NCBI GenBank assembly: GCA_029288725.1
Contig: JARIGS010000024.1
Span: 1 to 47,809, forward strand
Length of the DNA: 47,809 nt
From: Candidatus Nomurabacteria bacterium
GTDB taxonomy: Bacteria > Patescibacteriota > Minisyncoccia > Phycocordibacterales > UBA9973
Direction of reading: 5' to 3'
Numbering within the stretch: the stretch's first letter is position 1; each line of letters starts with the position of its first letter. Below are positions 3,959-21,319 of this stretch, piece by piece. Position numbers and translations under genes: made by a program. Under the pieces are notes generated by a model. That model ran no database searches and was not told where the DNA came from. It worked only from the letters and a program-made list of their open reading frames with translations.

Positions 3959-3976
3959 TAGTGCACTATACATATA

Positions 3977-4819
3977 ATGAAAGCAAAGAAACATCTCGGC
4001 CAGCATTTTCTCAAATCACAGAGTGCCCTTATCAAAATTCGTGACGCAGCCCACATCACGAGCGAAGATACCGTCTTGGAGATTGGACCAGGAACAGGGG
4101 CACTGACGACCCTGCTCATTGCCGCAGCCAAGCATGTCATCGCCATCGAAAAAGACACTGAGCTTATTCCACTACTGGAAACAACATTTGCCCAGGAAAT
4201 TGCTGCAGGGAAATTGACGCTCATTGAAGCAGACGTATTGCATTTTGACCCTTGCACGCTGACAGGCCTTGGAATAAAAACTTATAAACTGGTCGCCAAT
4301 ATTCCATACTATATAACAGGCGCCATCATCGAACAGTTTCTTAGCACGCCTTACCAGCCAGAGACAATGGTGCTCCTCATTCAAAAAGAGGTGGCAGAAC
4401 GAATCGTTGCTCGACCCGCCGATGGAACTAGTCGCAGCAAGGAAAGCATCCTCTCAGTCGCGGTCAAAGCCTATGGCGTACCGAAAATCATTGCCAAAGT
4501 ACCACCCGGAGCATTTGTCCCACCTCCGACCGTTGATTCCGCTATCCTTTCTATTGAAAACATTACCCGAAATTTCTTTAATGACTGCGACGAAATGCTC
4601 TTTTTCGCTGTCATGAAGGCTGTATTTGGCAAGAAGCGCAAGCAAATTGGTGGAAGCCTGGCAGAGTTCATCGGCAATAAGGAACAGGCATTGACCGCAC
4701 TTGCTCAATCAGGCATTGATCCTAAGACCCGACCTGAAGACATTACCTTGCAAACATGGAAAAAACTGACGCAAGTGTTGTACAATATAACCAATGAACA
4801 CTTCTCAGGGACCAAGTAA
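3977..4819 (+). CDS. rsmA: 16S rRNA (adenine1518/1519-N6)-dimethyltransferase RsmA/KsgA
   Basis: LGQHFL, EIGPGTGALT and NIPYYIT motifs. 280 aa. Confidence 0.9.
   Translation: MKAKKHLGQHFLKSQSALIKIRDAAHITSEDTVLEIGPGTGALTTLLIAAAKHVIAIEKDTELIPLLETTFAQEIAAGKLTLIEADVLHFDPCTLTGLGIKTYKLVANIPYYITGAIIEQFLSTPYQPETMVLLIQKEVAERIVARPADGTSRSKESILSVAVKAYGVPKIIAKVPPGAFVPPPTVDSAILSIENITRNFFNDCDEMLFFAVMKAVFGKKRKQIGGSLAEFIGNKEQALTALAQSGIDPKTRPEDITLQTWKKLTQVLYNITNEHFSGTK
4779..4786 (+). promoter_or_regulatory. -10 box TGTACAAT inside the rsmA 3' end, 7 nt before ATG 4794
   Basis: TGTACAAT-ataacca-ATG. No SD. Confidence 0.4.
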
Positions 4820-5681
4820 GCAATTCCTCATAAGAGGGGGTATTGCTATTGGTGTTATTGCCATACTATTAATAGTACAGACTGGCTGGTTTAAAAATCT
4901 TTTTCATAAAAAATCAGCAAATAATCAAAACCCGGTAGTAGGCGACCTCATTGCTAAAGACTCAAATGGCAACGGTATTCCTGATTGGGAAGAGCGATTA
5001 TGGGGTCTTGATCCGACCGTGCTCTATACTGACGGTAAAAGTAATATCGAGATTATTAAAGAAAAAAAGCTCGCTCTTGGTATCAAGGATGAGCCCGATG
5101 ACCAGCCTCTTACTCAGACAGACCAGATTGCCCGCAGCCTCTTTAGTCTTTCAGCGGCAGTCGCAGGCTCAGACCAGGTGGATAGCAGTGCTATAACAAG
5201 CGCAGCGGGAAATCTCGGTTCATCGGTAGATATTCAGACTATTAACGATCACTATTCACTAAAAAACCTCAAGACTACCAAGAGTACTCCGCAGTCTATC
5301 CGTACCTATCAATCACAACTTAGCGCTATATTGAGTGCCTATGACAGCAACACTGCTGATATCAATGTGATCGTGCAGGCTTTACAGACAGGGGATTTCA
5401 GCAATGTCGGTCAACTTTCTGCCACGGCCGTAACCTATCGTGGCTTTGCTGACAAGATCAGTCGTCTCACCGTCCCTATCGGTGCAGCTCAGTTTCAGCT
5501 TGATATTATGAATGGCTTCTATGGCATTGCCGACTCGTTTCAATATCTCGTACAGATTCAAGATGACGGTATTTCCGGTCTTTCCGGCATTGTTGCCTAT
5601 CGCAAGTATGACCTGCGGCTTGAAACAGCATTAGTGAATCTACATACTTATTTCGTCCGATACGGTATACTATCTTCGTAA
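4794..5681 (+). CDS. Membrane-anchored hypothetical protein (first gene of the T4SS-like locus)
   Basis: N-terminal TM helix GGIAIGVIAILLIVQTGWF, then a DSNGNGIPDWEE calcium-binding-like (thrombospondin type-3/dockerin-like) motif. The rest is helical and of unknown family. It overlaps rsmA by 26 nt. Confidence 0.6.
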   Translation: MNTSQGPSKQFLIRGGIAIGVIAILLIVQTGWFKNLFHKKSANNQNPVVGDLIAKDSNGNGIPDWEERLWGLDPTVLYTDGKSNIEIIKEKKLALGIKDEPDDQPLTQTDQIARSLFSLSAAVAGSDQVDSSAITSAAGNLGSSVDIQTINDHYSLKNLKTTKSTPQSIRTYQSQLSAILSAYDSNTADINVIVQALQTGDFSNVGQLSATAVTYRGFADKISRLTVPIGAAQFQLDIMNGFYGIADSFQYLVQIQDDGISGLSGIVAYRKYDLRLETALVNLHTYFVRYGILSS

Positions 5682-5682
5682 T

Positions 5683-7710
5683 ATGATGCGATATTTCCTC
5701 ATCCTTAGTCTCATAGTGGCAATCATTGCCGCACCGCTCACTGTCAGTGCACAAACAGCTGGGTACTACACTCCTCAGGTAACCCTGCAATACGGACAGG
5801 ACAACAGCTTTGGTGGATTAAGCTTCAAAGGAGTAGGGTCAGCGCTTGTTTCATGTAGTGGGCTAGGAGATACGGTAGCAAGCGTCATAACAAGTGCGGT
5901 CGATAAGGTCAAAGGAGTCGTTGGCGGATTGATAAGTAAGGGGTTGGACTCTATTACAGGGGGACTGTTTAGTTCATTGTTTGGTGGCGGCAGCAAGCCA
6001 GGCGATAATGCGAGCAGTCCTTCTTATGTTAAAGATACGGCTCTTGAAAATAAGTCCGGCTGTCTCGACGGTATTGCCTATGTCCTTTCCCAACAGGTCT
6101 TGCAACAAATCACCAACCGAACATTGCACTGGGCAAATACGGGCTTTAACGGCAACCCGCTCTATATCAAGGACATTGATTCATACCTCCTTTCAATACG
6201 AAACGAAAAAGTCAGCAGTTTTCTCAATGGAGCTCAAAATAGCAATCCTATCTTTGGCAACGCCCTGCGTTCGGTCATTACCCAGCAAGTCACTGGTTTG
6301 AATGATGGCCAAATAGATGTAGAGCTTAATACCCCCGAAGCAAAAGCATATACATCATTTATGAGCGACTTCAGCAATGGTGGGTGGGACGCATTACTGG
6401 ATCCAAAAAATAATCCTATCGGTGCATTCTTTAATGCTGCGGATGACCTTACCGACAATATCAATACCCAAAAAACCGACACACAAAACGAATTGCAACG
6501 CAATGGAGGATTTCTTGATATGAAAACTTGTGTGGAATATGCGCCCACGGGGGATACCAATGCAGCAATTCAGTCTGGCTTGCATGACCCTGTCTGTCTT
6601 AAGTATGAGACGGTTACACCTGGATCTATCGTCGCTCAGCAAGTATCAAGCATTACTAACTCACCGCAACGCCAGGCAGAACTTGCCACTAGTTTCAACG
6701 AGGCAGTAGGCTCATTCTTTGATGCATTGCTTAATCAGCTCTTTTCTCGCGGTCTTTCCGGTATTAACGGTCAGGCAAACCCTGCCGACATTGGATTGGC
6801 GACCGGCGGGCCAGGAAGCAACACTGTTATCGGCAGCAATGGTCAGGTTCTCGCTGGCATTAATGCCGGAGTAGGGAATATCAATGCTATCGCAGCAGGG
6901 AGCGCAACGGTGGATATCAGTCATCCCCAATTGCTTCGAGCAGTTATTCAGGCCCAGTATGACTACATGAACCGGGCAAGTGACAGTCGCATGGTCCTTG
7001 ACCGCCTCCTCCCTGAAATGGGTCAGCTTGATTACTGCGTACCAGGGCCAAATCCGAGCTGGCAGGATAGCCTCAATGACAATTTGAATACGTACATTAC
7101 TAGTGCCACCGCAACACAGATTAGCAGTGACAGCACCATCAGTAATAGCGGATTATCGTTATACGATAAGGTAAAATTGGGCACTCAGCCAGTAAAGGAT
7201 CGTCAGCTCTCTATTATCGGTAATCCAAGTGCCAAAAGTTATCTTCAGGGCACCGTTAGTGACAACCTTACCCAGGAATTCACTACCAAATTCAGTAGAG
7301 ATGCTATTGGCAATGCCTTTGCTGCAACTACTGTCGGTACAACACAACAGAACTACAATCGTGGGGAAGCAACCGATGCCTACGATGAAGTAGCTGACCT
7401 ACCAACGTTTGCACAAAACGCTACCAAACAGGACCAGCTGTATGCCCAGCATATCGCTACGGCCCAGCAGGATATTCAACAGCTTACTGCTATCAATGCT
7501 CAAGTCCTAAAAATAGTGACCACCGCCAAGGCCCGATATGTTGCCCAACAAAAGGCAGCCGGCACGCCAGTGAACCAGCAGTGTCTTGATGCTTCATATG
7601 TTATCGACAATAGTGCGGTAACAGGCGTATCGCGTCAGGAATCAAACGTGCAAAGTCCGCTCATTCAGCAGACGCTTAATGCCAATAAGTATTTCTATAG
7701 CAACCTATAA
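5683..7710 (+). CDS. Secreted hypothetical protein, 675 aa
   Basis: Signal peptide MMRYFLILSLIVAIIAAPLTVSA/QT. Long uninterrupted ORF starting 1 nt after the previous stop. No family recognised. Confidence 0.65.
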   Translation: MMRYFLILSLIVAIIAAPLTVSAQTAGYYTPQVTLQYGQDNSFGGLSFKGVGSALVSCSGLGDTVASVITSAVDKVKGVVGGLISKGLDSITGGLFSSLFGGGSKPGDNASSPSYVKDTALENKSGCLDGIAYVLSQQVLQQITNRTLHWANTGFNGNPLYIKDIDSYLLSIRNEKVSSFLNGAQNSNPIFGNALRSVITQQVTGLNDGQIDVELNTPEAKAYTSFMSDFSNGGWDALLDPKNNPIGAFFNAADDLTDNINTQKTDTQNELQRNGGFLDMKTCVEYAPTGDTNAAIQSGLHDPVCLKYETVTPGSIVAQQVSSITNSPQRQAELATSFNEAVGSFFDALLNQLFSRGLSGINGQANPADIGLATGGPGSNTVIGSNGQVLAGINAGVGNINAIAAGSATVDISHPQLLRAVIQAQYDYMNRASDSRMVLDRLLPEMGQLDYCVPGPNPSWQDSLNDNLNTYITSATATQISSDSTISNSGLSLYDKVKLGTQPVKDRQLSIIGNPSAKSYLQGTVSDNLTQEFTTKFSRDAIGNAFAATTVGTTQQNYNRGEATDAYDEVADLPTFAQNATKQDQLYAQHIATAQQDIQQLTAINAQVLKIVTTAKARYVAQQKAAGTPVNQQCLDASYVIDNSAVTGVSRQESNVQSPLIQQTLNANKYFYSNL

Positions 7711-7715
7711 CCATT

Positions 7716-8627
7716 ATGACTAAACGCATTCTTACTATCATCCTTGTACTCCTCGCTGTTGCCTTTCTATTACTCGGCGGCATCTGGCTTGTCGGTCGTC
7801 ATGAGGCTCAGAAAAATGGCACAACCCCGCTCACCTTTCGACAATTTCTTGGCCTGGGAACAAGTGCAAAACCGGCTTCGACAGCAGGGGGGACACTGAC
7901 CTCAACGTTTACCAATCCTAATGGCGCTACCGGTAGCGGTACCGCAGATAACGGCATCGGCCAGACTACTATTGGTCCAAATGGCACCATTACTAGTACC
8001 GTAGACAATACTCAAGTCAGCCAATTCACCGGTTCCAGCATTTCACCAACAGATAATGGGCTCATCAATAGTGCAACGATAGGCGGGGGAAGTCCTTTTA
8101 ATGGTTCAGGCACTATCGGCACCGGAACAACATTGCCTAGCGGAACTCCTATTACCGGAGGCACAACAGGAAATGGCAGCACCGCAGGGGCTATCGCGGC
8201 CGGCCTTGGAGGCACCAGTTGCAGCACCGCAGACACTACCATTACCTTTACTGCTTCAGAAATCCAACAGCTAAACGCTCTCCAGGCACAATACAATGCC
8301 ATAGCTGCCAACCTTGCAACCGAAAGTGATGCCGCCAACGAGCTTTCTAACTACAATGACGAGAAACTGCAGGAGGCAAAAATCGCGGAATTGCAGAATT
8401 TCTGCCAAACAAACGTGCCTCTTTTGACCGATCCGGAGCTTCGACGCCATGTTCCTACTCCCTTCTGGCACGATATAAATCAAGACAGTGAAACCTTTAC
8501 CCTCAGTGGTATTACCACACCAGTCGGCGCAGCCTATCAGCCTCTGTTCAATGCGCCTGCTACTGCCTATAGCAATGCCGATGCCGCCTCATTCCTTGAG
8601 CGTATGTTGCGCATTAACTTGTGGTAA
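7716..8627 (+). CDS. Membrane-anchored hypothetical protein with Gly/Thr-rich linker
   Basis: N-terminal TM helix ILTIILVLLAVAFLLLGGIWLV, a G/T/S/N-rich low-complexity stretch of about 170 aa, and a C-terminal globular part. Possible VirB8/PrgL-type scaffold, unproven. Confidence 0.6.
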   Translation: MTKRILTIILVLLAVAFLLLGGIWLVGRHEAQKNGTTPLTFRQFLGLGTSAKPASTAGGTLTSTFTNPNGATGSGTADNGIGQTTIGPNGTITSTVDNTQVSQFTGSSISPTDNGLINSATIGGGSPFNGSGTIGTGTTLPSGTPITGGTTGNGSTAGAIAAGLGGTSCSTADTTITFTASEIQQLNALQAQYNAIAANLATESDAANELSNYNDEKLQEAKIAELQNFCQTNVPLLTDPELRRHVPTPFWHDINQDSETFTLSGITTPVGAAYQPLFNAPATAYSNADAASFLERMLRINLW

Positions 8628-8642
8628 AGCAAGCGTCTGACG

Positions 8643-8651
8643 TGATACACT
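8643..8651 (+). promoter_or_regulatory. Extended -10 box TGaTACACT, 6 nt before GTG 8658
   Basis: The 12-mer cgTGATACACTa is identical to the box at 16698-16709. Confidence 0.45.
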
Positions 8652-8657
8652 ATATGC

Positions 8658-11600
8658 GTGTCTGCACGCCTCTTTCGTAGTATGAAAAAAATACTATCCT
8701 CCTCATTTCGGACGGCTCTACTGTCAGCATTTTTTTTGCTTGCCCTGTTTGCAAAAGTACAATATGCATCTGCCCAAGTTGCCGCAGACGCTCAAAATGA
8801 CTATGCAAATTATTTGAATCTTTTTGATGACGGCCAAAGTGGCCTTTCTATTCCTAGTGCAGGTGACTTAATTCAGGATTCAACCACTAACGCCGTAACC
8901 GGCTTTAAGGTAAATATCGATCTGGGCTTTACAAGTAATGACAGCGATACTTTAAAGAAAAAATGGGAGCATGTAATACAGACAACAGATCAGGCATTTG
9001 TCATACGAGCCTGTGATAGTGCAAATCCAAACAATTGCTGGATTAACACTATTCCGTATAACACCATAACGACTACGAATGGAAGCCCCGATCTTGTGGG
9101 GACCTCAATTAGCCCTTTATACCAGGTTAATACATTTACTAAGGATGTTTACAATAACCCGATCATACTTTCAAATTTTTCAGTGTTCAGTGGCCCAACC
9201 AAAACCGGAAACTTTAATAGCTACCGCTATAACTACACAAGAGATACGAGTGGCAACAAAGACGAGGGGACAGTAAGTGCTTTCAATGGATTACCGTTAA
9301 CAAATGTTAATTCAGTTAACCTTACCGTTTGGTATTGTGCTGATTCTGTATCAAATGAAACTAACGGTGCTCAGGCATACCAAAAAATTGGCAATATTCT
9401 CAATGATAAAATTGCGACATTTGGAACATTATGTAAGGGGAATTCTTATTTTCGCATCGGTGACCCCATTACTATTACTATACCTGCTACTACCCAAGGA
9501 ATTGCGGCACAGGCAAATACCCAACAAACTACCGTTAGCGGAACTACCAATAAAGATAACTTACCAGAATGCGGCGTTGTTCCTGGATTACAGAACGGTA
9601 CTATTAACGGCTGTGCAGCCCAACTTGCATACGGCGTATATTGGCTCACCGCTTGGTTGGCAGGATTATTTGGAGGGCTGTTTGATTTCTTTATTGGATA
9701 CTCACTGAGCGACGCTTCCTATCGCTTCACTTTTGCCGTTACGGGCTGGAAGCTGGTCCGTGATATTTCCAACGTCTTCTTCATTATCATCATGGTATGG
9801 ACCGGCTTTTCTGCCGTATTCAATACCAGTAAGACTTCAATGAAAAGCGTGGTGCCGAACCTTATCATCAACGCTCTGCTCATCAACTTTAGCTTGTTTG
9901 CCACTCGTGTTGTCATTGATATTTCAAATATCACTGCCCGCATGTTCTATAGCCAAATGATCGTATGTGAGCAGGTAAATATTGATGCGAATGGTAATTG
10001 CCCTCCTGCACAAGCGAAACGAAGCTGGGGGGGATACTGGCCATTGTCGGAAAAAATAATCGGTTCATTCAATCCTCAAGCAATATTTAAAACCAGCGTC
10101 CTTCAGCCGCCTAGCAATACAGGGGCAAATACTACGGCAAATTTTAATGCCCAAAATGCTGCAAGCGCCAGTTCCACTAACGCCCGTGATTATGCAACCT
10201 ATTTCGGCATCGTCTGTCTGATTGCAGCATTTATTATGGTGTTTGTCACTATCATGTTCTTCCGCGTCACCTTCCTCTTTTTAGGAAGAGTAATTGGTTT
10301 ATATATTTGTATGATCTTCTCACCGTTTGCCTTTCTTAGCCGAGACATGCCGCTACTCAGTGGTATTTCAACATTACGATGGAGTGACTGGACAGAAGAA
10401 CTCACCAATTACGCCACCCTTGGGCCAATTTTCTTATTTTTCCTGTATATCATTTATATTTTTCTTTCAAGTAATTTTGTCCAACAAGTTGGGTTTAAAG
10501 ATCCATCCGGAAGCTTTTTCGGTACTGTGCTTGCCATTGTTATTCCTATGCTCATTATTTTCTTCCTGCTTCAGGCAGCACAAAAAGCCGCAGAAAAATT
10601 CTCCGGAGATATTGGAAAAAGGATACAGCAATATGGTGAACGGGTAACAGGTGCAGCAACAGGAACAGCGTTTGGTCTCGCAACCGGAGGGGCTGGATTC
10701 TTGGGAAGAAACGTTGCTGGTAGAGCGATGCAAGCATATGGAAATAGCACCACCGGAAAAAAGGTTATGGTTGACGGCAAGGAAGTCGATGAGACTCGAG
10801 CAATGAGACTTGCAGCTCGATCAGCTACCAGTTGGTCTGCCCGTCAGCAGAACAATTTCTTGCGTTGGGGTCAAACATCGAGCTGGAATGCTGGCAATGC
10901 CGGTGTAAAGGTTGGCGGAAAAGAGTACACGTTAAACACAGGAATAAGCAAGGGATTGGGAGCGTTAGGGGTGAAAACTAATAACCTTGCTGAGAAACTT
11001 AGCTATGTTGGAAAAGATGCAGGAAAAGGTGGCATATTGGCAGTCGACAAAAAACGGGTTGAGGATAGGCAAAAAGAGATTGAAAATAGAATTAAATTTG
11101 ACCATCTAAGTGATGATCAAGCAAAGGCGGTCTGGGAACAGTATAAACAAGATCATATCAATAAAGCTTCTGCGACAGCGGCTGAAAAAACATGGCAAGA
11201 TCATGTTAATGAAGAACCTGCGGTTAAATCAGCAGCAGAAAATCTTGCTCGAATTGAGAAAGAAAACACTGACCTTAAGAATGAACGCCTCAATCTTGAA
11301 AGCGAAGAAACTGCTTTGACCAAAAAGGTTGCTGAAGCTTCAACTCCTAGCGAACACGATCGATATCAAAATCAGCTCACTCAAAATAAGAGCAAGCAAG
11401 CTGCTAACAGAACAGCTCTTGCTGCAAATGAAAATAATCGTACAACTGCTGCCGCACAGCTTGATACCGTCCGAACTAGTACTGTTGACGATCTTAAGAA
11501 AGACGGAAAATACCGACAATCTGAAGCTTACGCGAAAGCGCAGGAAAAGAGCACGCAGGAAGAGGAGACTCGCCTCAACAAATATGGAAAAATCAAAAAT

Positions 11601-12266: not shown

Positions 12267-12268
12267 GT

Positions 12269-12817
12269 ATGGAAAATACAAATACAACCCTACAAGAGAA
12301 TGAGATCGATAAGGCTTTTGAGAGCTTACCTGAAGAAGTTCAGGACTTTCTTAGCAGCCCTTTATTTGAAGCCATCATACTTGCAATACAAGAAAACTTA
12401 TCACTTACCGATAATCAAAGGGATATTGTAAAATATATTGCTTATGAGCTTTTAATGAAAACAATGACTCCTGAAGAGGGCCTTGAATTGCTAAAAAACA
12501 ATGGGCTTACCGAGGATAGCGCTATAAAAACAATGTATGCTCTTGATAGTGAAGTACTAATCCGGGCAGCAAACATCACTGAGTTCTACACCGATGAAGT
12601 AGAAGTTGGGCTAGAAGACGGATCAACAAACGTACCGTCACCCGATATGAAAAATCTCTCTCTTGCTAGTCTAGCCGATCGTCTCAAGCAAGCCTCTATC
12701 GCTGCGCCGGCAAATCGTTCAGAGTATGGATTGAACAAGCCGGTCAGTCCGACTCCGGCAGTCGAAACTAGCTCTCCTGCTATTGACCCATATCACGAAC
12801 CAATAGACAATGAGTAG
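12269..12817 (+). CDS. Acidic cytoplasmic hypothetical protein, 182 aa
   Basis: No TM helix or signal peptide, and E/D-rich. The ATG lies 2 nt after the previous stop. Unknown family. Confidence 0.6.
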   Translation: MENTNTTLQENEIDKAFESLPEEVQDFLSSPLFEAIILAIQENLSLTDNQRDIVKYIAYELLMKTMTPEEGLELLKNNGLTEDSAIKTMYALDSEVLIRAANITEFYTDEVEVGLEDGSTNVPSPDMKNLSLASLADRLKQASIAAPANRSEYGLNKPVSPTPAVETSSPAIDPYHEPIDNE

Positions 12818-12819
12818 AC

Positions 12820-13215
12820 ATGCAATTCAAAGTGCCACAATTTATCGATATCGAGGATAAGGTATTTGGTCCACTAACCTTTAAGCAGTTTGCCTACCTG
12901 GCCGGGGGAGCGGGCTTTGGTTACTTATCATTCAAATTCCTCCCGACAATTGTCGCGCTTTTCTTGGGACCGGCGATTGTTGCATTTGCTGTTGCCTTGG
13001 CATTCATGACTTACAATGACAAGCCTTTCATTCACGTCGTCGAATCATTTATAAAATTCTACACTCGATCCCGCCTCTATCTCTGGCACAAGCAGGTTCC
13101 TCAGGCAATGCCGACCCAGCGTCCTCAGGCGTCTAGCAATGACCGTGGTACACTTACAGAGAGCAAGCTGAAAACCCTTTCCTGGAGCTTGGACGTCATT
13201 GGAAATAAAAAATAA
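12820..13215 (+). CDS. PrgI/VirB3-like small membrane protein
   Basis: FKVPQFIDIEDKVFGPLTFKQFAYLAGGAGFGYLSF followed by a second TM helix. This matches the pattern remembered for PrgI-family proteins that precede VirB4 in Gram-positive-type T4SS. Confidence 0.55.
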   Translation: MQFKVPQFIDIEDKVFGPLTFKQFAYLAGGAGFGYLSFKFLPTIVALFLGPAIVAFAVALAFMTYNDKPFIHVVESFIKFYTRSRLYLWHKQVPQAMPTQRPQASSNDRGTLTESKLKTLSWSLDVIGNKK

Positions 13216-13216
13216 C

Positions 13217-13858
13217 ATGGCTACCCCTATTGGCACCCCTGCCCAACAATTTGTCCCCGTACAGGAAGTACGCGATGGTATCGTAGTAATGAAAGACGGT
13301 AGTCTTTGCACGGTAGTGCTTGTTTCCTCCATCAACCTCAGCCTGAAATCGTATGATGAGCAAAAGGCGACATTACAACAGTTTCAAAACTTCCTCAATA
13401 CTATTGATTTTCCAATTCAAATCGTCGTGCAATCCCGCAAGTACGATATTCGTCCCTATATTTTGACACTTGAAAACCGCCTCAAGGAGCAAACAGAGCA
13501 GCTTTTGCAGGTCCAGACCAAGGAATACATCCAATTCATTGAAACATTTACCGAACAGGTCAATGTCATGCGCAAGTCATTCTTTGTTGTTATTCCTTAT
13601 ATTCCACCGGTATTGACCAAAAAGAGTGGCATTGGAAAATACCTTTCATTCCTCACACCCTCACGCGCTACCGGCAATGAAACCGTCAGCGACTTTGAAG
13701 AGGAGCGCACCCAGCTCGAAGAGCGTGTCAGCGTGGTAGAACAGGGACTAACAGGGGTAGGGTTGCGCCTCGTACAACTTGGCACTCAGGAAGTAATAGA
13801 AGTGTTGTACAAAACATTCAACCCTGGCGAGACTACCGGTCAGCAAACCAACCAATAA
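13217..13858 (+). CDS. VirB4-like N-terminal domain (upstream part of a VirB4 interrupted by one in-frame TAA)
   Basis: VPVQEVRDGIVVMKDGSLCTVVLVSSINLSLKSYDEQKATLQQFQNFLNTIDFPIQIVVQSRKYDI resembles N-termini of Gram-positive-type VirB4/TcpF/ConE-family ATPases. It is in the same reading frame as 13889..15712. Confidence 0.55.
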   Translation: MATPIGTPAQQFVPVQEVRDGIVVMKDGSLCTVVLVSSINLSLKSYDEQKATLQQFQNFLNTIDFPIQIVVQSRKYDIRPYILTLENRLKEQTEQLLQVQTKEYIQFIETFTEQVNVMRKSFFVVIPYIPPVLTKKSGIGKYLSFLTPSRATGNETVSDFEEERTQLEERVSVVEQGLTGVGLRLVQLGTQEVIEVLYKTFNPGETTGQQTNQ

Positions 13859-13870
13859 TACCTTATCTGG

Positions 13871-13878
13871 TGTATACT
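13871..13878 (+). promoter_or_regulatory. -10 box TGTATACT in the 30-nt VirB4 linker, 10 nt before ATG 13889
   Basis: TGTATACT-aaagccatac-ATG. Confidence 0.4.
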
Positions 13879-13888
13879 AAAGCCATAC

Positions 13889-15712
13889 ATGGCACTGTTT
13901 TCCTCCAAACAATCATCCACCAAGACTGACCGTCTGTTGCCAATTTCTGCAGCAGATGTTCAAGAGTGGGAAAGCATGGAATTGTCTGACAAGATCGCTC
14001 CATCGGCAATTGAAATCACTCCGAAATCGATGCGCATCGGCGATAAGATCGTGCGCACTTTTTTCGTCATTTCATACCCTCGTTATCTCAGCGATAACTG
14101 GCTGACCCCCATTATCAATCTCGACAAGATTTTTGACATTGCCATTTACGTCAACCCAATAGAGACGGCAGAATTGCTGAAGCATTTCCAAAAGAAAATT
14201 GCCGAAGTCGAAAGCCAGATCATCGTTCGCCAGCAAAAGGGTCTCGTCCGCGACCCAGTCCTTGATACTGCCCGAGAAGACTTGGAGGAACTGCGCGACA
14301 ACCTTACCCAGGCCCAGGAAAAAATGTTCGATGTCGGCATGTATATCACCATTTATGCTGATAGTGATACAGACTTGTTCAGAACGGAAAGTGAGATCAA
14401 GTCTATGCTTGAATCCAAGCTTATTTACCTCAAGCCATCACTGTTCCAGGAAGAAGACGGTTTCAAGACAGTTGCCCCATTAGGTTCTGACAAGCTCCAA
14501 GTCACTCAAAAGCTCAATTCAGAGCCTATTTCAAGCATGTTTCCTTTTGTGTCATTTGACCTAACGAGCGAAACCGGCATTCTTTACGGCGTGAACCGTC
14601 ACAACTCAAGCTTGGTTATTTTTGACCGCTTCAGTCTCGAAAACTACAATTCCATTATTTTTGCAAAGTCCGGTTCTGGTAAAAGTTATGCTACCAAACT
14701 AGAGATCATTCGTACGCTTATGTTCGATACAGAGGTGATCGTTATTGACCCGGAACGAGAATACGAATACCTAGCAGAGGCTGTCGGCGGGAGATACTTC
14801 AATATCTCACTGTCTTCAGATCACCATATCAATCCATTCGATTTGCCTATTCCGCGCGAGGATGAATCAGCGGCAGACGTATTGCGCAGCAATATCATCA
14901 ACCTTGTGGGACTATTCCGCATCATGCTTGGTGGTCTTACCCCTGAGGAAGATTCTGTCATCGACCGTGCCATTACTGAGACGTATTCATTGAAGGATAT
15001 TTCGGCTGACTCTGACTTCGCGAATATCGAACCGCCATTGCTCTCTGACTTTGAAATGGTGCTGACCGGTATGGAGGGGACTGACTCGATCCTTCAGCGT
15101 CTTACGAAATACACCCATGGTTCATGGGCAAGCTTCATCAACCAGCCAACCAATGTTGATATCAATAAAAAGTTCGTGGTCTTTTCTGTCCGCGACATGG
15201 AGGATGACTTGAAGCCGGCCGCAATGTATATAGTGACGCACTTTATCTGGAATGCAGTCCGCAAGGAGCTTCGCAAGCGCCTACTGGTGGTGGATGAGGC
15301 ATGGTGGATGATGAAATCAGACGATACCGCATCATTCCTGTATTCTATTGCCAAGCGTGGCCGTAAGTATTACCTTGGTCTCTGCACTATCACTCAGGAC
15401 GTTGGTGACTTCATGAAAAGCCCGTATGGTGTACCAATTGTGACCAACTCTTCTATTCAGCTACTCTTAAAACAGTCGCCTTCAACGATTGATATCCTGC
15501 AAAAGACATTTAACCTCACTGACGAGGAAAAATACCTGCTACTTGAATCAGGGGTAGGGGAAGGCATATTCTTTGCCGGATTGAAACATGTCGCCATCAA
15601 GATTATTGCCTCCTATACGGAGGATCAGATCATTACCTCCGACCCATCACAAGTTATTTCCATTAAAAAGGCCAAGCAGGAATTGGCAGAGGGACAGGCA
15701 GGGAATCAATAG
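13889..15712 (+). CDS. virB4: VirB4-family T4SS ATPase (middle and ATPase domains)
   Basis: IAPSAIEITPKSMRIGDKIVRTFFVISYPRYL, Walker A AKSGSGKSYATK, IDPEREYEYLAEAVGG, Walker B LLVVDEAWWMM, and CTITQDVGDF. No N-terminal TM helices. Confidence 0.85.
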   Translation: MALFSSKQSSTKTDRLLPISAADVQEWESMELSDKIAPSAIEITPKSMRIGDKIVRTFFVISYPRYLSDNWLTPIINLDKIFDIAIYVNPIETAELLKHFQKKIAEVESQIIVRQQKGLVRDPVLDTAREDLEELRDNLTQAQEKMFDVGMYITIYADSDTDLFRTESEIKSMLESKLIYLKPSLFQEEDGFKTVAPLGSDKLQVTQKLNSEPISSMFPFVSFDLTSETGILYGVNRHNSSLVIFDRFSLENYNSIIFAKSGSGKSYATKLEIIRTLMFDTEVIVIDPEREYEYLAEAVGGRYFNISLSSDHHINPFDLPIPREDESAADVLRSNIINLVGLFRIMLGGLTPEEDSVIDRAITETYSLKDISADSDFANIEPPLLSDFEMVLTGMEGTDSILQRLTKYTHGSWASFINQPTNVDINKKFVVFSVRDMEDDLKPAAMYIVTHFIWNAVRKELRKRLLVVDEAWWMMKSDDTASFLYSIAKRGRKYYLGLCTITQDVGDFMKSPYGVPIVTNSSIQLLLKQSPSTIDILQKTFNLTDEEKYLLLESGVGEGIFFAGLKHVAIKIIASYTEDQIITSDPSQVISIKKAKQELAEGQAGNQ

Positions 15713-15715
15713 TGT

Positions 15716-15723
15716 TGTATACT
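15716..15723 (+). promoter_or_regulatory. -10 box TGTATACT, 10 nt before ATG 15734
   Basis: TGTATACT-atatacaaca-ATG. Confidence 0.4.
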
Positions 15724-15733
15724 ATATACAACA

Positions 15734-16693
15734 ATGAAACGAATACTCTCCATCGCTATAGGCGCACTATTGCTCTCAGGCATCGCTCTTGTTGCGGCGC
15801 ATGCCCAACTTGCGACGGCCGACCTTAGTCTCTCTACTGTTCCATTAGACCCTCAGCCACTGCAGTCAGTACAGATCCGTCTCCAAAGTTTTGGCTTTGA
15901 CCTCAGTCAGGCAACTATTACATGGAATTACAACGGCACTCCTATTGCATCAGGTACAGGAAGAACGACTGTTACCGTCACCGCACCCGCCAACGGCCAA
16001 GTGGGTACTGTCTCAGCAACAGCGAGCAGTACTGATTTTTCATCAACAACCGCTACCTTATTGCTCCGTCCCGCCAGTGTCGACGTGATCTGGGAAGGAG
16101 CAGACAGTTACACGCCGCCGTTTTATAAAGGCCGTGCCCTTCCAGCCAATAACGGCCTAATCCGTGTTACTGCTATTCCTGCCATTAGTGCTCCCCGCGG
16201 GCTGACCTATACCTGGTCAGAAAATAGCTCAGTATTGCAGAATAGTTCCGGCTATAACAAAAACAGCATCGTATTTCAAAATGATACGCTCAATACCTTG
16301 GAAAACATTGGCGTAACTGCAACAAGTACTAATTTTTCTGGTAATGGGTCAGTGAGCATAGCGCCCGTAAAACCTACGGTCGTTGGATATTTCAATACTG
16401 ATGGCTATATTGATTATGCCAATGGTTCTACTGATAGTTTAAGTACCGCTGATACAGGCACGATCGTCCATTTCGAACCGTACTTCTTTTCCACACCGCT
16501 AAGCATTTCGCACGACCTAACCTTTGCCTATACCGATAGCAGTGGCAATAATATAGAAACTGGCGACACGCAAAATGAACTGCGTCTTTCTCGCCCCGAT
16601 GGGGGAGGACAGTCACAATTTACCCTTGTTATCAATACGATTATGTACAGCCTGCAGAACCTTTCCCGCAAGTTTTCAGTCAATTTCAATTAA
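15734..16693 (+). CDS. Secreted beta-rich hypothetical protein, 319 aa
   Basis: Signal peptide MKRILSIAIGALLLSGIALVAAHA/QL. T/S-rich and Ig-like in character. No family recognised. Confidence 0.6.
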   Translation: MKRILSIAIGALLLSGIALVAAHAQLATADLSLSTVPLDPQPLQSVQIRLQSFGFDLSQATITWNYNGTPIASGTGRTTVTVTAPANGQVGTVSATASSTDFSSTTATLLLRPASVDVIWEGADSYTPPFYKGRALPANNGLIRVTAIPAISAPRGLTYTWSENSSVLQNSSGYNKNSIVFQNDTLNTLENIGVTATSTNFSGNGSVSIAPVKPTVVGYFNTDGYIDYANGSTDSLSTADTGTIVHFEPYFFSTPLSISHDLTFAYTDSSGNNIETGDTQNELRLSRPDGGGQSQFTLVINTIMYSLQNLSRKFSVNFN

Positions 16694-16699
16694 TATTCG

Positions 16700-16708
16700 T
16701 GATACACT
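16700..16708 (+). promoter_or_regulatory. Extended -10 box TGaTACACT, 6 nt before ATG 16715
   Basis: TGATACACT-actact-ATG. Confidence 0.45.
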
Positions 16709-16714
16709 ACTACT

Positions 16715-18442
16715 ATGAAAAAGCTTCTATGGCTCACGGCACTGCTCGGACTTTTCTTCGTATTTCCTCATACTGCATTAGCAGGTAGCGTATACAATTT
16801 TGCTGGCACCTATCCAGCAACCATTACCGTAACTTCAGCAACCTCAGCCAATGTCGCGATTACAGTACCGGGAAGTAGTACTAATAAAAAAGTACTGGCA
16901 TGCATTATCGAAAAATCAAAAATAACCTCTGCAAACTGTGGGTCTGATGCACCTATAGTAAATACTATTTTTAATAAAGAAATACAAAGTCAGAAAAAAG
17001 ATACTGTCCTTTCCTTCAAGCTGAGCAATTTGTCAACATCAAAAACATATGACCTTTTTATTACCGATGATGCAGACCCTACAAAGTATCTATTGCATGA
17101 ATTTACCACTGCCTCCACCGCTTCAAATTACACAGACACTCCAACAACAATGACCGCCAAAGATGGTGATGACATTATCGTTTCCACCACCATTGATCCG
17201 TCGAAATACTCTAATTATCAGGATTTTTCTGCCTCACTTATATATTCAAGATCAAATGACCTTAGTAGCCCCATTAATGGAGGTGCAATTAGTGGAAAGC
17301 AGAGCAGTGATCCAAATAGTGCCGTTGGGGCAAATGCAACAAACACCCCCGGAACTTTCTTTTGGAGACTTAAAAATCTAAGTCCTAGCACTATTTACTA
17401 CTATCAAATAACCGTTACACCTCCTGGAGGAACGGGGATTAAAAGCACCATCAATAACTTCAACAGCTCGAGCGGTGTCACCATCGCTCCTGGCAGTGAC
17501 GCTGCTCAGGCAGACCTTAACCAGCGAAGTTATACCTTATTACTAGATCCTACAAAAAAAACAATTTTGCCCGATCCTGATCTGTGTGCTCAGGAGCGTG
17601 CTGCCGGACAACATCCACAGTTCTGTGATATGAATGATGTTCTTAACTATGCATTGAAACTCATGATTGGTTTATCGGCAGTATTTCTGGTATTCCGTTT
17701 AATGTTTGAAGGGTACAAGTACATGGTCAGTGACGTACCATTCCTGAAAGCCAGTGCGAAATCAGGGTTCTTTACCGCCCTTACAGGCCTCCTGCTCGCA
17801 ATGTCTTCATATTTAATTCTTAATACTATTAATCCAAAATTGGTCAGCAATACCATCAATGTTAGCCAGCTAAGTATTAGTGTAGATGGTGATGCTAATA
17901 CTCCGACAACATTCGTTCCTAATGGACAAATGCCTACCGGAGTAATATGCCCTAGCAGCGGAAGATCCGCTTCAGTGGCAGGAGTAGCGCAAAGTTTCGT
18001 AGGAAAAGTTACCTATAAGTATGGCGGAAAAAGTGCCGCTGCTCAATCTGACGGCAAAGCAGCTCTTGATTGTTCCGCGTGGACAAACACAGTACTGAAA
18101 TGTTCAGGTTTCACTACGCCAGGAGATTATAAAAATAGCGGTTCTGCCGATATTTTTTCAGGAGCAGAACAGGTAGATATGTCTAAAAATTTTACCACCA
18201 GCGGTAGTGACGTGCTGATTAATGGTAAGAAGTTAAATCCGGGAGATTTAGTAGGATGGCCACAGACAAGTACCTATGGACATGTTATTTTGTATGTTGG
18301 CAATAAAACATTTATGGATTCACATTCAGGTGGTGGCAGCGGTGGTGCAATAGGAACATATTCTGCGGCGCAAATACAAAAACTATTTGGCGGATCAAGT
18401 CCTTCAAAAACCATTACGGCAGTAAAAAGAATACCTTTATAG
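16715..18442 (+). CDS. Tripartite surface protein: secreted N-domain + VirB2-like pilin two-helix module + NlpC/P60- or CHAP-type cell-wall hydrolase
   Basis: Signal peptide MKKLLWLTALLGLFFVFPHTALA. Two adjacent hydrophobic helices LKLMIGLSAVFLVFRLMF and FFTALTGLLLAMSSYLILNTI, separated by a short loop as in TrbC/VirB2-like pilins. C-terminal cysteine-peptidase signature DCSAWT...GHVILYVG...DSHS. Confidence 0.6.
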   Translation: MKKLLWLTALLGLFFVFPHTALAGSVYNFAGTYPATITVTSATSANVAITVPGSSTNKKVLACIIEKSKITSANCGSDAPIVNTIFNKEIQSQKKDTVLSFKLSNLSTSKTYDLFITDDADPTKYLLHEFTTASTASNYTDTPTTMTAKDGDDIIVSTTIDPSKYSNYQDFSASLIYSRSNDLSSPINGGAISGKQSSDPNSAVGANATNTPGTFFWRLKNLSPSTIYYYQITVTPPGGTGIKSTINNFNSSSGVTIAPGSDAAQADLNQRSYTLLLDPTKKTILPDPDLCAQERAAGQHPQFCDMNDVLNYALKLMIGLSAVFLVFRLMFEGYKYMVSDVPFLKASAKSGFFTALTGLLLAMSSYLILNTINPKLVSNTINVSQLSISVDGDANTPTTFVPNGQMPTGVICPSSGRSASVAGVAQSFVGKVTYKYGGKSAAAQSDGKAALDCSAWTNTVLKCSGFTTPGDYKNSGSADIFSGAEQVDMSKNFTTSGSDVLINGKKLNPGDLVGWPQTSTYGHVILYVGNKTFMDSHSGGGSGGAIGTYSAAQIQKLFGGSSPSKTITAVKRIPL

Positions 18443-18454
18443 TACAATAACTCT

Positions 18455-19717
18455 ATGCGTCGCATTCTAATCATCATTGTCATAGTACTACTCATAGGGG
18501 CAGGGGTATGGTATTTCTATGTCCGTCCACGCCAACAGGCAGGCGTATCGCCGGTACCTAACGTACTGAAGGTCTTTTTTCCAAAAACTACGACTAACAA
18601 TACTGGGGCATTTGGCACCGATACTGACCCCAACGGGGCAGGAAACAATGCCCCTGCTGCAGTTTCACCTTTCAAGCAGCTAACGACTCGCCCCGTAGCC
18701 GGATTCACCATCTTTTCTCTTACTAATACTGTCTCAGTACCAAGCACCGCTTCAAGCACGACAGGACAAGCATCTAAACCAACCGTTCAGACGGTCACCG
18801 ACCACTACCTGCGCTATGTCTCCCGGGTCAATGGATACGTATATGAGATCAAAAATGACAGTGTGCCGCTGCAGATCAGCAATGTATTTATTCCTAATAT
18901 ATACGAGGCATTTTTTGCTGATGGTAATACTACCGCTATCCTTCGCTTTTTGCGTCAGGATAATCACACCATTGCAACATACAGCGTTCCAATTCCCGCA
19001 TTGAATCCTGATGGTACTCGTACTCAAAAATCTGGAACGTATTTGCCTGACAATATTTCCGCATTGGCCATTTCGCCTGACCAAAAACAGATCCTTCGCA
19101 TCACTACCGACCAAAATGGCGCAGTGATTACTAGCTCAAACAGCACGGGCGGGGGGATAAAGACCCTGCTTCGCTCTCCATTTGAACAATGGTTGCCACA
19201 ATGGACAAGTTCTAATGTATTTCTCCAAACAAAAGCGGCCTCTGTAGCAAATGGTTTTCTATACAACATCGACCAGACTACGGCTCGTTTGCGACGAGTA
19301 GTGGGAAATGTAGCGGGACTCACTACGTCAGTCAGCCCTAAGGGTACATATGTGCTCTATTCCCAAAGTACTGCTAATGGATTTACTACCAGTAGTTTCA
19401 ATACCAAAACAAACGTTACCAACAGCATCAGTCTTAGTATTTTGCCTGAAAAATGCACCTGGCTACAGAATGAAGACCTGATCTGTGCAGGAAACAATAC
19501 TGTTGCAGCGGGAACTTATCCTGATGCCTGGTATGCTGGCACAACTCATTTCTCAGACCAGCTCTATCACATCGCTACTGCCTCAAATACTTACAGCGTG
19601 CTCTTTGACGGTCAAAACCAAAACTTCGACATGACCAATCTTCAGGCAGACGAATCACAAGGATTACTCTATTTCATCGACAAGAATACGGGGTTGCTGT
19701 GGCAGTACAAATACTAA
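18455..19717 (+). CDS. Membrane-anchored hypothetical protein, possibly beta-propeller-like, 420 aa
   Basis: N-terminal TM helix ILIIIVIVLLIGAGVWYFYV. Repeated segments of the ISPDQKQIL / VSPKGTYVLYSQS type are reminiscent of TolB/PD40 blades. TACAAT box 6 nt before the ATG. Confidence 0.55.
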   Translation: MRRILIIIVIVLLIGAGVWYFYVRPRQQAGVSPVPNVLKVFFPKTTTNNTGAFGTDTDPNGAGNNAPAAVSPFKQLTTRPVAGFTIFSLTNTVSVPSTASSTTGQASKPTVQTVTDHYLRYVSRVNGYVYEIKNDSVPLQISNVFIPNIYEAFFADGNTTAILRFLRQDNHTIATYSVPIPALNPDGTRTQKSGTYLPDNISALAISPDQKQILRITTDQNGAVITSSNSTGGGIKTLLRSPFEQWLPQWTSSNVFLQTKAASVANGFLYNIDQTTARLRRVVGNVAGLTTSVSPKGTYVLYSQSTANGFTTSSFNTKTNVTNSISLSILPEKCTWLQNEDLICAGNNTVAAGTYPDAWYAGTTHFSDQLYHIATASNTYSVLFDGQNQNFDMTNLQADESQGLLYFIDKNTGLLWQYKY

Positions 19718-20437
19718 CTATTGAGCAATCATTTTGCTTCGCACGGTCTTTCGTAGGTAGAGTTCCTGCAAGATAGAGAAGAGATTTGCCACCGTCCAAT
19801 ACAGTGATACGGCAGAGGCAAGACGGCTCGCGATAAAGATAATAAGGATAGGGAGGACGTATTTGGTTTGTACGGCCAATGATTGGGCGAACTGAGCCTG
19901 CATATTAGTATCACCACTGCGTCCTGGAGGGGTAGGCTGAGGGGCAAGAAAGGCCTGAATAGCCTGTGTAATACCAGCAAGCAGTGCCAGAGGGAAAAAT
20001 GGCTTAGTAATATCAATAAGCCCGAGGAAGGTATTTTTAAGATTGTCAGTACTAAGGAAACTGTAGAGGTGTTGTGGCTGCACGACACCATGTGAGAATG
20101 AGAAATATAATGCAAAAAGGATAGGAAGCTGGATGATCAAATAAAGACAGCCAGAAAATGGATTAATCTTTTCTTCCTTATAAAGGGCAAACGTAGCCTG
20201 AGCTTCCTCTTCCTTGGAAAGGCCTTTATTCTTAATCTCCTGAAGCTTTGGCTCCAAGGCACGCATTTTGTATTGTCCAACGATGCTTTTCTTACTAAGC
20301 GGAAACAATACCAAGCGGATGATGATGGTAAGAACAATCACCGCCAAACCAACATCCTGGGCAGTAATGTGCTGGGCGATAAATATGAGAGCGTTATAAA
20401 TTGGCTGGTAAATGACAATATTCCAAAGTGTTTGCAT
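19718..20437 (-). CDS. yidC: Membrane protein insertase YidC (short form)
   Basis: 239 aa polytopic protein. Conserved position downstream of yidD-rnpA-rpmH. Motifs of the PIYNALIF...LFPL...KMRALEPKLQEIK type. Confidence 0.85.
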   Translation of the reverse strand: MQTLWNIVIYQPIYNALIFIAQHITAQDVGLAVIVLTIIIRLVLFPLSKKSIVGQYKMRALEPKLQEIKNKGLSKEEEAQATFALYKEEKINPFSGCLYLIIQLPILFALYFSFSHGVVQPQHLYSFLSTDNLKNTFLGLIDITKPFFPLALLAGITQAIQAFLAPQPTPPGRSGDTNMQAQFAQSLAVQTKYVLPILIIFIASRLASAVSLYWTVANLFSILQELYLRKTVRSKMIAQ

Positions 20438-20443
20438 TCGTTG

Positions 20444-20452
20444 AGTATAGCA
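20444..20452 (-). promoter_or_regulatory. Extended -10 box TGcTATACT, 6 nt before the yidC ATG
   Basis: The minus strand reads TGCTATACT-caacga-ATG(20437). Confidence 0.45.
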
Positions 20453-20454
20453 CG

Positions 20455-21034: not shown

Positions 21035-21037
21035 AGA

Positions 21038-21175: not shown

Positions 21176-21305
21176 AGAGTAGGCGTACTATACACAAAAA
21201 CGGTTGATTAATCAAGTAGTTAATTTAAGGACCATTTCTGGTATAATCCACTCTATCCACATCTTTTCCCCATACATGTAAACATGTTGAAGTGGCGGAA
21301 AAACC

Positions 21306-21313: not shown

Positions 21314-21319
21314 ACATTC

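Follow-up and report, generated by a model that had tools for sequence, protein, structure and literature searches.

The DNA analysed here, referred to as the window, is the whole 47,809-bp contig JARIGS010000024.1 of a Candidatus Nomurabacteria bacterium (GenBank assembly GCA_029288725.1). Between the housekeeping genes rsmA and yidC, the window carries a locus related to type IV secretion systems (T4SS), a block of 12 tightly packed genes on the forward strand (4794-19717) that was delimited from the list of open reading frames (ORFs) and their translations (Table 1). The intergenic gaps inside this block measure 1 to 30 nt and its first gene, g1, shares 26 nt with rsmA. An earlier reading of the letters, made without any database and called here the sequence-only reading, had described the same packed and co-directional block, with the overlap of 26 nt and the gaps of up to 30 nt that the ORF list also gives. 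It had counted 11 genes, a number raised here to 12 since VirB4 is encoded by two genes. The flanks that it proposed, rsmA on one side and yidC-yidD-rnpA-rpmH-dnaA on the other, were recovered by Pfam and by the direct reading of rpmH in frame. Upstream of RsmA, Pfam also confirmed UvrD, and the uvrD-rsmA-T4SS block spans positions 1979-19717.

Table 1. Position of the genes of the T4SS-related locus and of its flanks in the window.
Feature	Position	Strand	Length (aa)	Description	Evidence
rsmA/ksgA	3977-4819	+		Upstream housekeeping flank	ORF and translation; PF00398 RrnaAD in the orthologous slot; syntenic in relatives
g1	4794-5681	+	295	One N-terminal transmembrane segment (aa 8-37); helical ectodomain with a conserved D..DWEE..LW motif	
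g2	5683-7710	+	675	Secreted; conserved Cys pairs	
g3	7716-8627	+	303	N-terminal anchor; Gly/Thr/Ser-rich low-complexity region; C-terminal helical part	
g4	8658-12266	+	1202	'Extended VirB6'-like polytopic protein	Topology from hydrophobicity
g5	12269-12817	+	182	Acidic (isoelectric point 4.1) cytoplasmic protein, no transmembrane segment	
g6	12820-13215	+		PrgI/VirB3-like small membrane protein	PF12666, 1.4e-10
g7a	13217-13858	+	213	TrsD/TraD-like, detached VirB4 N-terminal domain	NF041427, 3.8e-7
g7b	13889-15712	+	607	VirB4 ATPase core, MPF_FATA / CD1110 type	NF045971
g8	15734-16693	+	319	Signal peptide or anchor; about three likely immunoglobulin (Ig)-like beta-sandwich repeats	
g9	16715-18442	+		Signal peptide, variable beta-rich ectodomain, VirB2/T4SS-pilin-like two-helix transmembrane hairpin, NlpC/P60 head	
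g10	18455-19717	+	420	N-terminal anchor; predicted TolB-like (PD40) beta-propeller	
yidC	19718-20437	-		First gene of the downstream flank	Pfam
Downstream flank: yidC (-), yidD (-), rnpA (-), rpmH (-), dnaA (+), dnaN (+)	19718-23957				Pfam
rpmH	21038-21175	-			Read in frame directly
dnaA	21284-22672	+		Start 1.6 kb past the end of the locus	Pfam

The locus was compared with its relatives by scanning species-representative genomes with the VirB4 core. At least 596 relatives were detected in this way and the best 80 loci were used for comparison, all of them from Patescibacteria of the Paceibacteria / 'Nomurabacteria' type. These best 80 genome matches, which all belong to the candidate phyla radiation, share 73-93% amino acid identity with the VirB4 of the window. 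Plasmids gave more than 5,000 VirB4 matches, which are only 27-35% identical at best. Sequence similarity thus agrees with a grouping among the Patescibacteria VirB4 proteins rather than among those of plasmids.

The ATPase core encoded by g7b matches the family model NF045971 (conju_CD1110) with an E value of 1e-114 and 384.5 bits for a cut-off of 325, as well as PF19044 (2.4e-25), the VirB4 C-terminal domain of known structure (PDB 4ag5, 2.5e-42) and TrwK (8e-8). Its Walker A (AKSGSGKS) and Walker B (LLVVDE) motifs are kept in all 80 orthologues. The product of the preceding gene, g7a, also matches the N-terminal region of the NF045975 model (VirB4_plasma, 2.2e-12), and its orthologues carry the TraC-like domain PF26593. 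Between the two lie an in-frame TAA (13856-13858), a spacer of 30 nt and a new ATG at 13889. The VirB4 that had been announced at 13217-15712 is therefore correct in identity, as the NF045971 match demonstrates, but not as a single ORF. Since each of the 80 related loci has g7a and g7b as distinct ORFs, never fused, and all three relative frames occur among them, this split is an ancient two-gene state; the same observation rules out a pseudogene or a recoding site. Immediately upstream of g7a, the small g6 protein contains a hydrophobic hairpin (residues 36-66) and matches PF12666 (PrgI) with 42 bits, above the gathering cut-off of 27, in agreement with the earlier PrgI/VirB3 assignment; it is present in 76 of the 80 loci.

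The largest protein, g4, is composed of a signal peptide, an ectodomain of about 290 residues with a conserved Cys pair, a transmembrane core (residues 320-650) and a charged coiled-coil tail. This tail of about 550 residues (650-1202, nucleotides 10600-12266) is Gly-rich, then forms a Lys/Glu/Ala-rich coiled coil with an extra transmembrane segment at 1016-1041, and the whole architecture resembles that of the 'extended VirB6' proteins; the length of the orthologues ranges from 411 to 1305 residues. Direct searches gave no Pfam hit for g4 or for 39 of its orthologues and no NCBIfam hit for g4 itself, TrbL and VirB6 included, and a profile search of the PDB returned compositional matches to TolA and coiled coils, plus TrwI at an E value of 4.4. 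Homologues of the g4 core do carry weak PF04610 (TrbL) and PF19590 (TrbL_3) matches, namely P0028 (5.9e-19), P0051, P0054 and P0056, and P0028 occupies the identical genomic slot in a contig of 1.08 Mb. In addition, an AlphaFold2 model of the core was obtained with a mean predicted local distance difference test (pLDDT) of 79.8 and a predicted template-modelling score of 0.75. Its top three fold matches in the PDB, as ranked by Foldseek, are all TrwI/VirB6 of plasmid R388, the best one being 8rt9_F (E 0.038, probability 1.0, template-modelling scores 0.36/0.50). Finally, g4 is positioned relative to PrgI and VirB4 exactly as the annotated VirB6/TrbL of a clostridial conjugation module. On the basis of the TrbL-marked homologues, of the modelled core and of gene position, g4 is likely to be a VirB6-type channel protein. 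The earlier VirB6/TrbL assignment is thus left without a direct profile hit of its own, and finds its support in the weak matches of the homologues and in TrwI as the best fold match.

In g9, a pilin-like hairpin (residues 270-385 approximately) is combined with an NlpC/P60 domain (residues 432-539, 1.4e-9) that retains the catalytic Cys (DCS, 452-454) and His (GHV, 522-524) motifs and whose profile matches NlpC/P60-type hydrolase structures in the PDB. The two-helix module of the window is itself below threshold for the T4SS_pilin family (E 0.011, 16.2 bits for a cut-off of 26.6) and aligns with its orthologues. The latter were collected from the fixed slot between g8 and g10, in 46 of the loci L001-L080 and L083 (for example L001:7655-9292, L004:12899-14443, L040:12809-13804 and L026:12781-14151). 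Among them, 39 match PF18895 (T4SS_pilin), with a best E value of 9.2e-10 and several scores above the 26.6-bit cut-off, and 16 match PF04956 (TrbC/VirB2). The fusion of a VirB2-like pilin to an NlpC/P60 enzyme, a VirB1 analogue, that the sequence-only reading had recognised is borne out by these matches and by the catalytic motifs.

The survey of these 46 orthologues produced a further result. The hairpin stays constant and the N-terminal ectodomain varies, whereas the C-terminal 160-280 residues fall into 13 mutually unrelated clusters. Pfam identifies these exchangeable heads as NlpC/P60 in 15 orthologues, VanY in 8, Amidase_5 in 7, YkuD and SLT_2 in 3 each, SLT, Peptidase_M15_4 and CHAP in 2 each, and SLT_4 and SLT_3 in a single orthologue each, several further heads being unlabelled. 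The exchange can be observed between close relatives. The closest one, L001, whose VirB4 is 93% identical, has a VanY head where the window has NlpC/P60; the two g9 proteins align well up to the end of the hairpin (...ILNTINPKLVS..INV.QLSI) and homology is lost right after. Relatives with a VirB4 identity of 85-89% carry SLT-type heads.

The other proteins of the block are accessory partners. Hydrophobicity analysis gives one N-terminal hydrophobic segment each for g1, g2, g3, g8 and g10, in line with the signal peptide or anchor attributed to them earlier, and the acidic and cytoplasmic character announced for the protein starting at 12269 (g5) was verified as well. Comparison by tblastn and ORF position shows that most of the 80 loci have g1, g2, g8 and g10 and keep their order, with a median identity of 27-30%. 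Direct Pfam and NCBIfam scans returned no significant family for g1 to g5, g8 and g10, and nothing of use came from the PDB sequence-profile searches made with g1, g2 and g8. The sequence-only reading had likewise considered these partners unrecognisable; this holds for the direct scans and must be revised for g8 and g10, which appear Ig-like and TolB-like, respectively, through their orthologues.

Among these partners without a known family, g8 is the most conserved and is found in 78 of the 80 loci. Its 132 homologues include Ig, Ig_3 or PKD_3 marks on 3 of the 120 listed, and, out of 43 orthologues, 8 have a weak match to Ig_3, 6 to BiPBP_C and 3 to PKD. Because of these weak but repeated matches and of the marks on database homologues, g8 likely carries about three Ig-like repeats. 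The profile of g10, a member of a family of 2,618 clusters at 50% identity, gives 12 weak matches in the PDB, all of them to TolB (best E 0.01), and PD40 is detected in 7 of its 46 orthologues; the protein is probably a membrane-anchored, wall-associated TolB-like beta-propeller. Two of these orthologues, from an alignment that includes L016 and L034, have acquired a PG_binding_1 domain (5.4e-11), which fits a cell-wall role of g10. In 35-37 related loci, the corresponding slot holds g1, with about 27% identity. For g2, none of the 86 homologues bears an annotation. Its AlphaFold2 model, built from 64 homologues, has a pLDDT of 69.6 overall and above 85 for residues 410-675, and predicts for the C-terminal half a long bundle of helices interrupted by an insert of five beta strands. 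The PDB fold matches of this model were discarded as generic long helices (axonemal proteins, SmhA, flagellins), with probabilities of at most 0.06 for the full-length protein and at most 0.33 for short fragments. The fast-evolving g3 is detectable only in the 6-7 closest relatives and is replaced elsewhere by variable ORFs of 270-700 residues or by none. The slot of g5 is conserved and its sequence is not, since other species have a variable ORF of 150-400 residues at this place.

The gene order uvrD-rsmA-g1-g2-(g3)-g4-(g5)-g6-g7a-g7b-g8-g9-g10-yidC-(rnpA)-dnaA-dnaN is common to the 80 loci, and its recurrence in 80 species-level genomes is far beyond chance. The comparison of the rsmA-yidC interval in related genomes, which had been suggested as a check of the sequence-only reading, therefore reveals a collinear arrangement. 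In the 32 loci where it is fully covered, this interval measures 12.2-18.3 kb and contains no additional conserved gene. The median amino acid identity over the same loci is 77% for VirB4, 56% for DnaA, 51% for UvrD, 48% for DnaN and 44% for YidC, the value of VirB4, the highest of all, being somewhat inflated by the ranking of the loci on VirB4 similarity, although its distance from the others is wide. Collinearity can extend beyond the locus: a ComM/Mg-chelatase-like gene and an M23 peptidase gene (46-510 and 972-1799), upstream of uvrD, are also found in the 1.08-Mb contig of a distant relative (L082:2154-4281).

The window and the related loci were searched for the DNA-processing genes of conjugation. 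Neither a VirD4-type coupling ATPase (T4CP) nor a relaxase nor an integrase was found by Pfam and NCBIfam among the 46 proteins scanned in the 47.8 kb of the window, and no direct repeat pair brackets positions 4794-19717, which agrees with the absences listed in the sequence-only reading. The only tRNA gene of the window is located at 47.6 kb, and none adjoins the locus. No T4CP or relaxase is present in the rsmA-yidC intervals of the 32 fully covered relatives. The large unassigned ORFs that relatives have in the g3 and g5 slots or after g10 belong to no T4CP or relaxase family either. Last, the GC content of the locus is that of its flanks.

The locus lies within a few kilobases of the likely origin of replication. 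Three 9-mers resembling DnaA boxes, with one mismatch each, are clustered at 22674-22814 in the 187-bp spacer between dnaA and dnaN (22673-22859), a fourth one-mismatch 9-mer occurs at 21253, just upstream of dnaA, and the cumulative GC skew has its minimum at about 18-24 kb. Because of the cluster and of the skew minimum, oriC is probably located in the dnaA-dnaN spacer. With the origin at this place, the uvrD-rsmA-T4SS block would read towards it, head-on to replication. Practically all of the 80 related loci have the block in this orientation with respect to dnaA, and a head-on orientation is unusual for a long, presumably important operon. A consensus scan for promoters in the block gave no more matches than shuffled expectation, and a similar scan detected no strong terminator on the forward strand within it; the block is compatible with transcription as one long transcript.

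Two sets of repeats were considered and set aside. A 22-nt direct repeat upstream of g1, g7b and g8 (4773, 13800 and 15710) was tried as an internal promoter or regulatory motif; its positions are not conserved in relatives and it was attributed to chance. Near-identical 42-nt palindromes (AATAAAAAATCC...GGATTTTTTATT) are found at 932-973 and 24208-24249, between convergent genes, and bound a 23-kb origin region. They were rejected as attachment-like (att-like) sites, both being self-complementary bidirectional terminators (A-tract, hairpin, T-tract) located outside the locus.

Systems of this type have already been reported. Wang et al. (Cell 2023; PMC10633639) described in Southlakia epibionticum a Gram-positive-like T4SS with pilin subunits and without recognisable coupling protein or relaxase, which transposon sequencing showed to be essential for epibiotic growth (PMC10633639), comEC being dispensable (PMC10633639, PMC12857230). 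Quiñonero-Coronel et al. (Microb Genom 2025, 11:001409; PMC12102498) found VirB4 in 2,417 of 3,035 Patescibacteria genomes, as a monophyletic clade nested in MPF_FATA. In their survey (PMC12102498), the commonest companion of virB4 is TrsD, the detached VirB4 N-terminal domain; PrgI/VirB3, VirB6 and VirB2-like pilins are encoded near virB4, and VirB1 homologues accompany it particularly in Paceibacteria. Relaxases are almost absent, T4CP homologues are usually distant from virB4, and the virB4 neighbourhood of Paceibacteria is rich in dnaA, dnaN, rnpA, ksgA and rpmH (PMC12102498).

The locus of the window shares all the traits of this Patescibacteria-clade T4SS: a VirB4 of MPF_FATA ancestry with a separate TrsD-like gene directly upstream, PrgI/VirB3, a likely VirB6, a VirB2-like pilin and a VirB1-type hydrolase in the vicinity, no relaxase and no nearby T4CP, and a site beside dnaA, dnaN, ksgA (rsmA), rnpA and rpmH. 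Nothing essential differs. The system and its non-conjugative character, including the proximity to the origin, the TrsD split and the missing relaxase, are thus already published (2023-2025); the locus does not represent a novel type of system (PMC10633639, PMC12102498). Neither the pilin-hydrolase in one polypeptide with its exchangeable head nor the class-wide set of g1, g2, g8 and g10 is stated in PMC12102498, at least in its main text, which mentions neither the fusion nor the swapping of heads.

Other known systems resemble the locus to a lesser extent. The T4SS of Southlakia epibionticum ML1 (SEML1_0006-0019) is also chromosomal and Gram-positive-like, with pilin-like subunits, with hydrolases downstream of virB4 and with a cluster in which neither a coupling protein nor a relaxase is recognisable, and its low locus tags suggest a site near the genome start; it belongs, however, to another class, Saccharimonadia, and has six small divergent VirB2-like pilins instead of one hydrolase-fused module. 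The Clostridium botulinum plasmid pCDC3875 (CTn2/CD1110 type) shares the core order VirB6/TrbL - PrgI - x - VirB4 - x - SLT wall hydrolase, the gene after VirB4 encoding a small protein. Its module is mobile, with a preceding VirD4 on a replicon typed MOBP, whereas the locus of the window is fixed in the chromosome. In the CD1110-type conjugative modules, the VirB4 is 27-35% identical, the hydrolase is not fused to a pilin-like hairpin and no equivalents of g1, g2, g8 and g10 were recognised. Compared with this clostridial architecture, the locus has lost the DNA-processing and coupling genes, and differs further by its VirB4 in two pieces, by the pilin-like stem that its hydrolase bears and by envelope proteins specific to the class. 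The TrsD/TraD-containing type of pGO1 and pIP501 is also close, the detached VirB4 N-terminal domain being known from the pGO1 subclass (PMC12102498). With the Trw system of R388 (MPF_T; 7o3v, 8rt9, 7o41), the similarity is limited to the g4 core, which best matches TrwI/VirB6, and to g7b, which aligns to TrwK/VirB4. Trw is a diderm system with an outer-membrane core of VirB7, 9 and 10 and with VirB5, VirB8, VirB11 and VirD4, none of which was found here, and g4 is about four times larger than TrwI owing to its added ectodomain and coiled-coil regions.

Taken together, these results make it very probable that the locus is the Paceibacteria version of the Patescibacteria-clade T4SS, a vertically inherited, origin-proximal machine derived from MPF_FATA that has lost its DNA-processing half and has been domesticated for a non-conjugative role. 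Vertical inheritance is indicated by the same rsmA-yidC/dnaA slot in all informative loci, by the conservation of VirB4 above DnaA and by the Walker motifs kept in 80 of 80 orthologues. The sequence-only reading had arrived at a domesticated, non-conjugative T4SS, a conclusion strengthened by the fixed slot in 80 species, the intact Walker motifs, the flank-like GC content and the lack of T4CP, relaxase, integrase and att sites.

Several points weigh on the other side. Sequence-level searches recognised no VirB8/NTF2-like component, and in particular no match to the NTF2-like ectodomain of VirB8/TcpC among g1, g2, g8 and g10. The support for VirB6 in g4 is indirect, the Pfam matches of its orthologues being flagged as weak and the Foldseek match being modest (E 0.038, template-modelling score 0.36-0.50). 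The pilin module of the window scores below the Pfam threshold (16 bits for 26.6), and a hairpin with a large ectodomain on each side may do no more than anchor the protein in the membrane, without polymerising as a pilin does. The operon structure is deduced from gene spacing. VirD4 homologues exist in most Patescibacteria genomes, usually far from virB4 (PMC12102498); as their absence here concerns 47.8 kb, a distant T4CP or relaxase is conceivable. Finally, the essentiality data come from Saccharimonadia, a class other than Paceibacteria.

From established T4SS biology, a working model of the machine can be drawn. The products of g4 and g6 would together make up the membrane translocon, and a VirB4 hexamer docked on it would power assembly and translocation. 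Both ends of g9 would be outside the cell, where the enzyme head could open the cell's own wall locally and possibly that of the host, and VirB4 may drive the assembly of the hairpin into a short stalk or pilus. The Ig repeats of g8, the propeller of g10 and the helical g1 and g2 would build the wall-spanning, host-facing part, replacing the VirB8-type scaffold and the adhesins.

The function of such a machine is regarded as unknown in a 2025 FEMS review and a 2024 PNAS perspective (PMC12857230, PMC11665869), which list effector delivery, a pilus-like conduit and the uptake of host molecules as candidates. The functions suggested by the sequence-only reading (effector delivery, appendage, host contact, DNA uptake) match this list of candidates. 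In the present analysis, the export of protein effectors at host contact is held to be a fair possibility, short of being probable, and a conduit or pilus for the uptake of host molecules, nucleic acid included, is kept as a possibility to be viewed more guardedly. A mere appendage or adhesion function is unlikely, and conjugative DNA export is highly improbable.

Two rival explanations accept the domestication of the machine and dispute its use. According to the first one, which is rather unlikely, the locus encodes a DNA or nucleotide uptake device similar to Helicobacter pylori ComB or to the archaeal Ced system, feeding a nucleotide-auxotrophic cell with host nucleic acid. ComB import needs no coupling protein, a point in favour of this explanation. 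Patescibacteria lack nucleotide synthesis, the ComEC pathway of Southlakia is dispensable when its T4SS is essential, and uptake has been proposed by reviewers (PMC11665869, PMC12857230). The VirB4 of the window is also weakly similar to the CedB (2.3e-9) and CedD (2.4e-5) models, but with 36.4 bits for a cut-off of 700 and 23.2 bits for a cut-off of 600 these matches are far below the family limits and reflect the shared P-loop region only, so that the protein is not placed within the CedB/CedD or ComB ATPase families. Moreover, the Pfam and NCBIfam scans recognised no DNA-binding or nuclease component among the 12 proteins.

The second explanation, improbable to a similar degree, sees in the locus a surface appendage or an organelle for wall remodelling and adhesion, where VirB4 builds the pilin-hydrolase stalk and no substrate is transferred. 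In other T4SSs, pilus biogenesis is indeed the task of the VirB4 ATPase (PMC12102498). Half of the genes have extracytoplasmic products of structural appearance (Ig repeats, propeller, helical bundles), wall enzymes are borne by a pilin-like protein, and the window scans gave no nearby T4CP. On the other side, the T4CP-less Ptl and Brucella VirB systems still secrete proteins (PMC12102498). The retention and conservation of a VirB6-like channel protein also speak against a simple appendage, and adhesion or motility is already covered by a separate type IV pilus system (PilB, 33292-34995).

That the locus is instead an ordinary integrative and conjugative element, or a decayed plasmid module, lying by chance near the origin with its coupling protein, relaxase and att sites elsewhere is almost certainly wrong: the core gene order is like that of a Firmicute conjugation module, the VirB4 is of the CD1110 conjugative family and only 47.8 kb of the genome are in view, but the same rsmA - yidC-dnaA slot is occupied in 80 species by intervals of 12-18 kb without room for a T4CP or relaxase, no integrase, att-like repeat or adjacent tRNA accompanies a GC content equal to that of the flanks, and VirB4 is conserved above DnaA, with all frames intact, catalytic motifs kept and no plasmid VirB4 closer than 35%.

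Within the preferred reading of a domesticated T4SS, a more specific proposal can be formulated for g9. This protein would be the business end of the machine, with a VirB2-like stem bearing an exchangeable head active on peptidoglycan, either at the cell surface or on a stalk built by VirB4, and with the type of head set by the wall chemistry of the host. The partners g1, g2, g8 and g10 would make up an extracellular conduit specific to Paceibacteria, without counterpart in characterised T4SSs. The proposal is speculative and rather unlikely. Neutral replacement is at least as likely as selection by the host wall; in this case any wall enzyme could act as the VirB1 of the cell on its own wall, and heads would be swapped without consequence. 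Should the selection by host walls be true, the type of g9 head would be a host-range determinant.

The remaining genes of the window are housekeeping genes (PBP1, an aminoacyl-tRNA synthetase, RuvC, RuvB, PilB, PolA, DsbB and others), among which a few features deserve a mention. The PilB-type type IV pilus ATPase on the reverse strand, which reveals the separate pilus system mentioned above, matches T2SSE with an E value of 7.6e-118, and an IS200-like Y1 transposase (32643-33242, reverse strand; PF01797, 1.5e-13) lies directly downstream of it. The stretch 35074-38148 has the lowest GC content (0.39, for about 0.45 in the window overall) and encodes three orphans of 385, 162 and 413 residues without Pfam family, two of which have lipoprotein-like N-termini (…LLQVGC and …IFTSC); it may be a small acquired islet. 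On the forward strand, positions 30043-30486 encode a SET-domain protein of 147 residues (PF00856, 2e-24), a predicted lysine methyltransferase in a minimal bacterial genome. Positions 38320-40329, also on the forward strand, encode a surface protein of 669 residues with a signal peptide, beta-rich repeats (DUF11 and fn3 similar to the N-terminal domain of purple acid phosphatases) and a C-terminal transmembrane anchor, a possible adhesin.

The window is one more example of a known system and does not by itself make the question of its function more testable. What it offers is two handles on function: the accessory envelope proteins found across the class, and the pilin-like protein with a wall-enzyme head that changes even from one close relative to another, the latter being a modest new lead. 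Much of bacterial diversity belongs to the Patescibacteria, which have very small genomes and lead a life attached to other microorganisms. Almost all their lineages encode a T4SS-derived machine beside the origin, and it proved essential in the only species where this was tested; the machine probably plays a central part in the exploitation of hosts by these bacteria.

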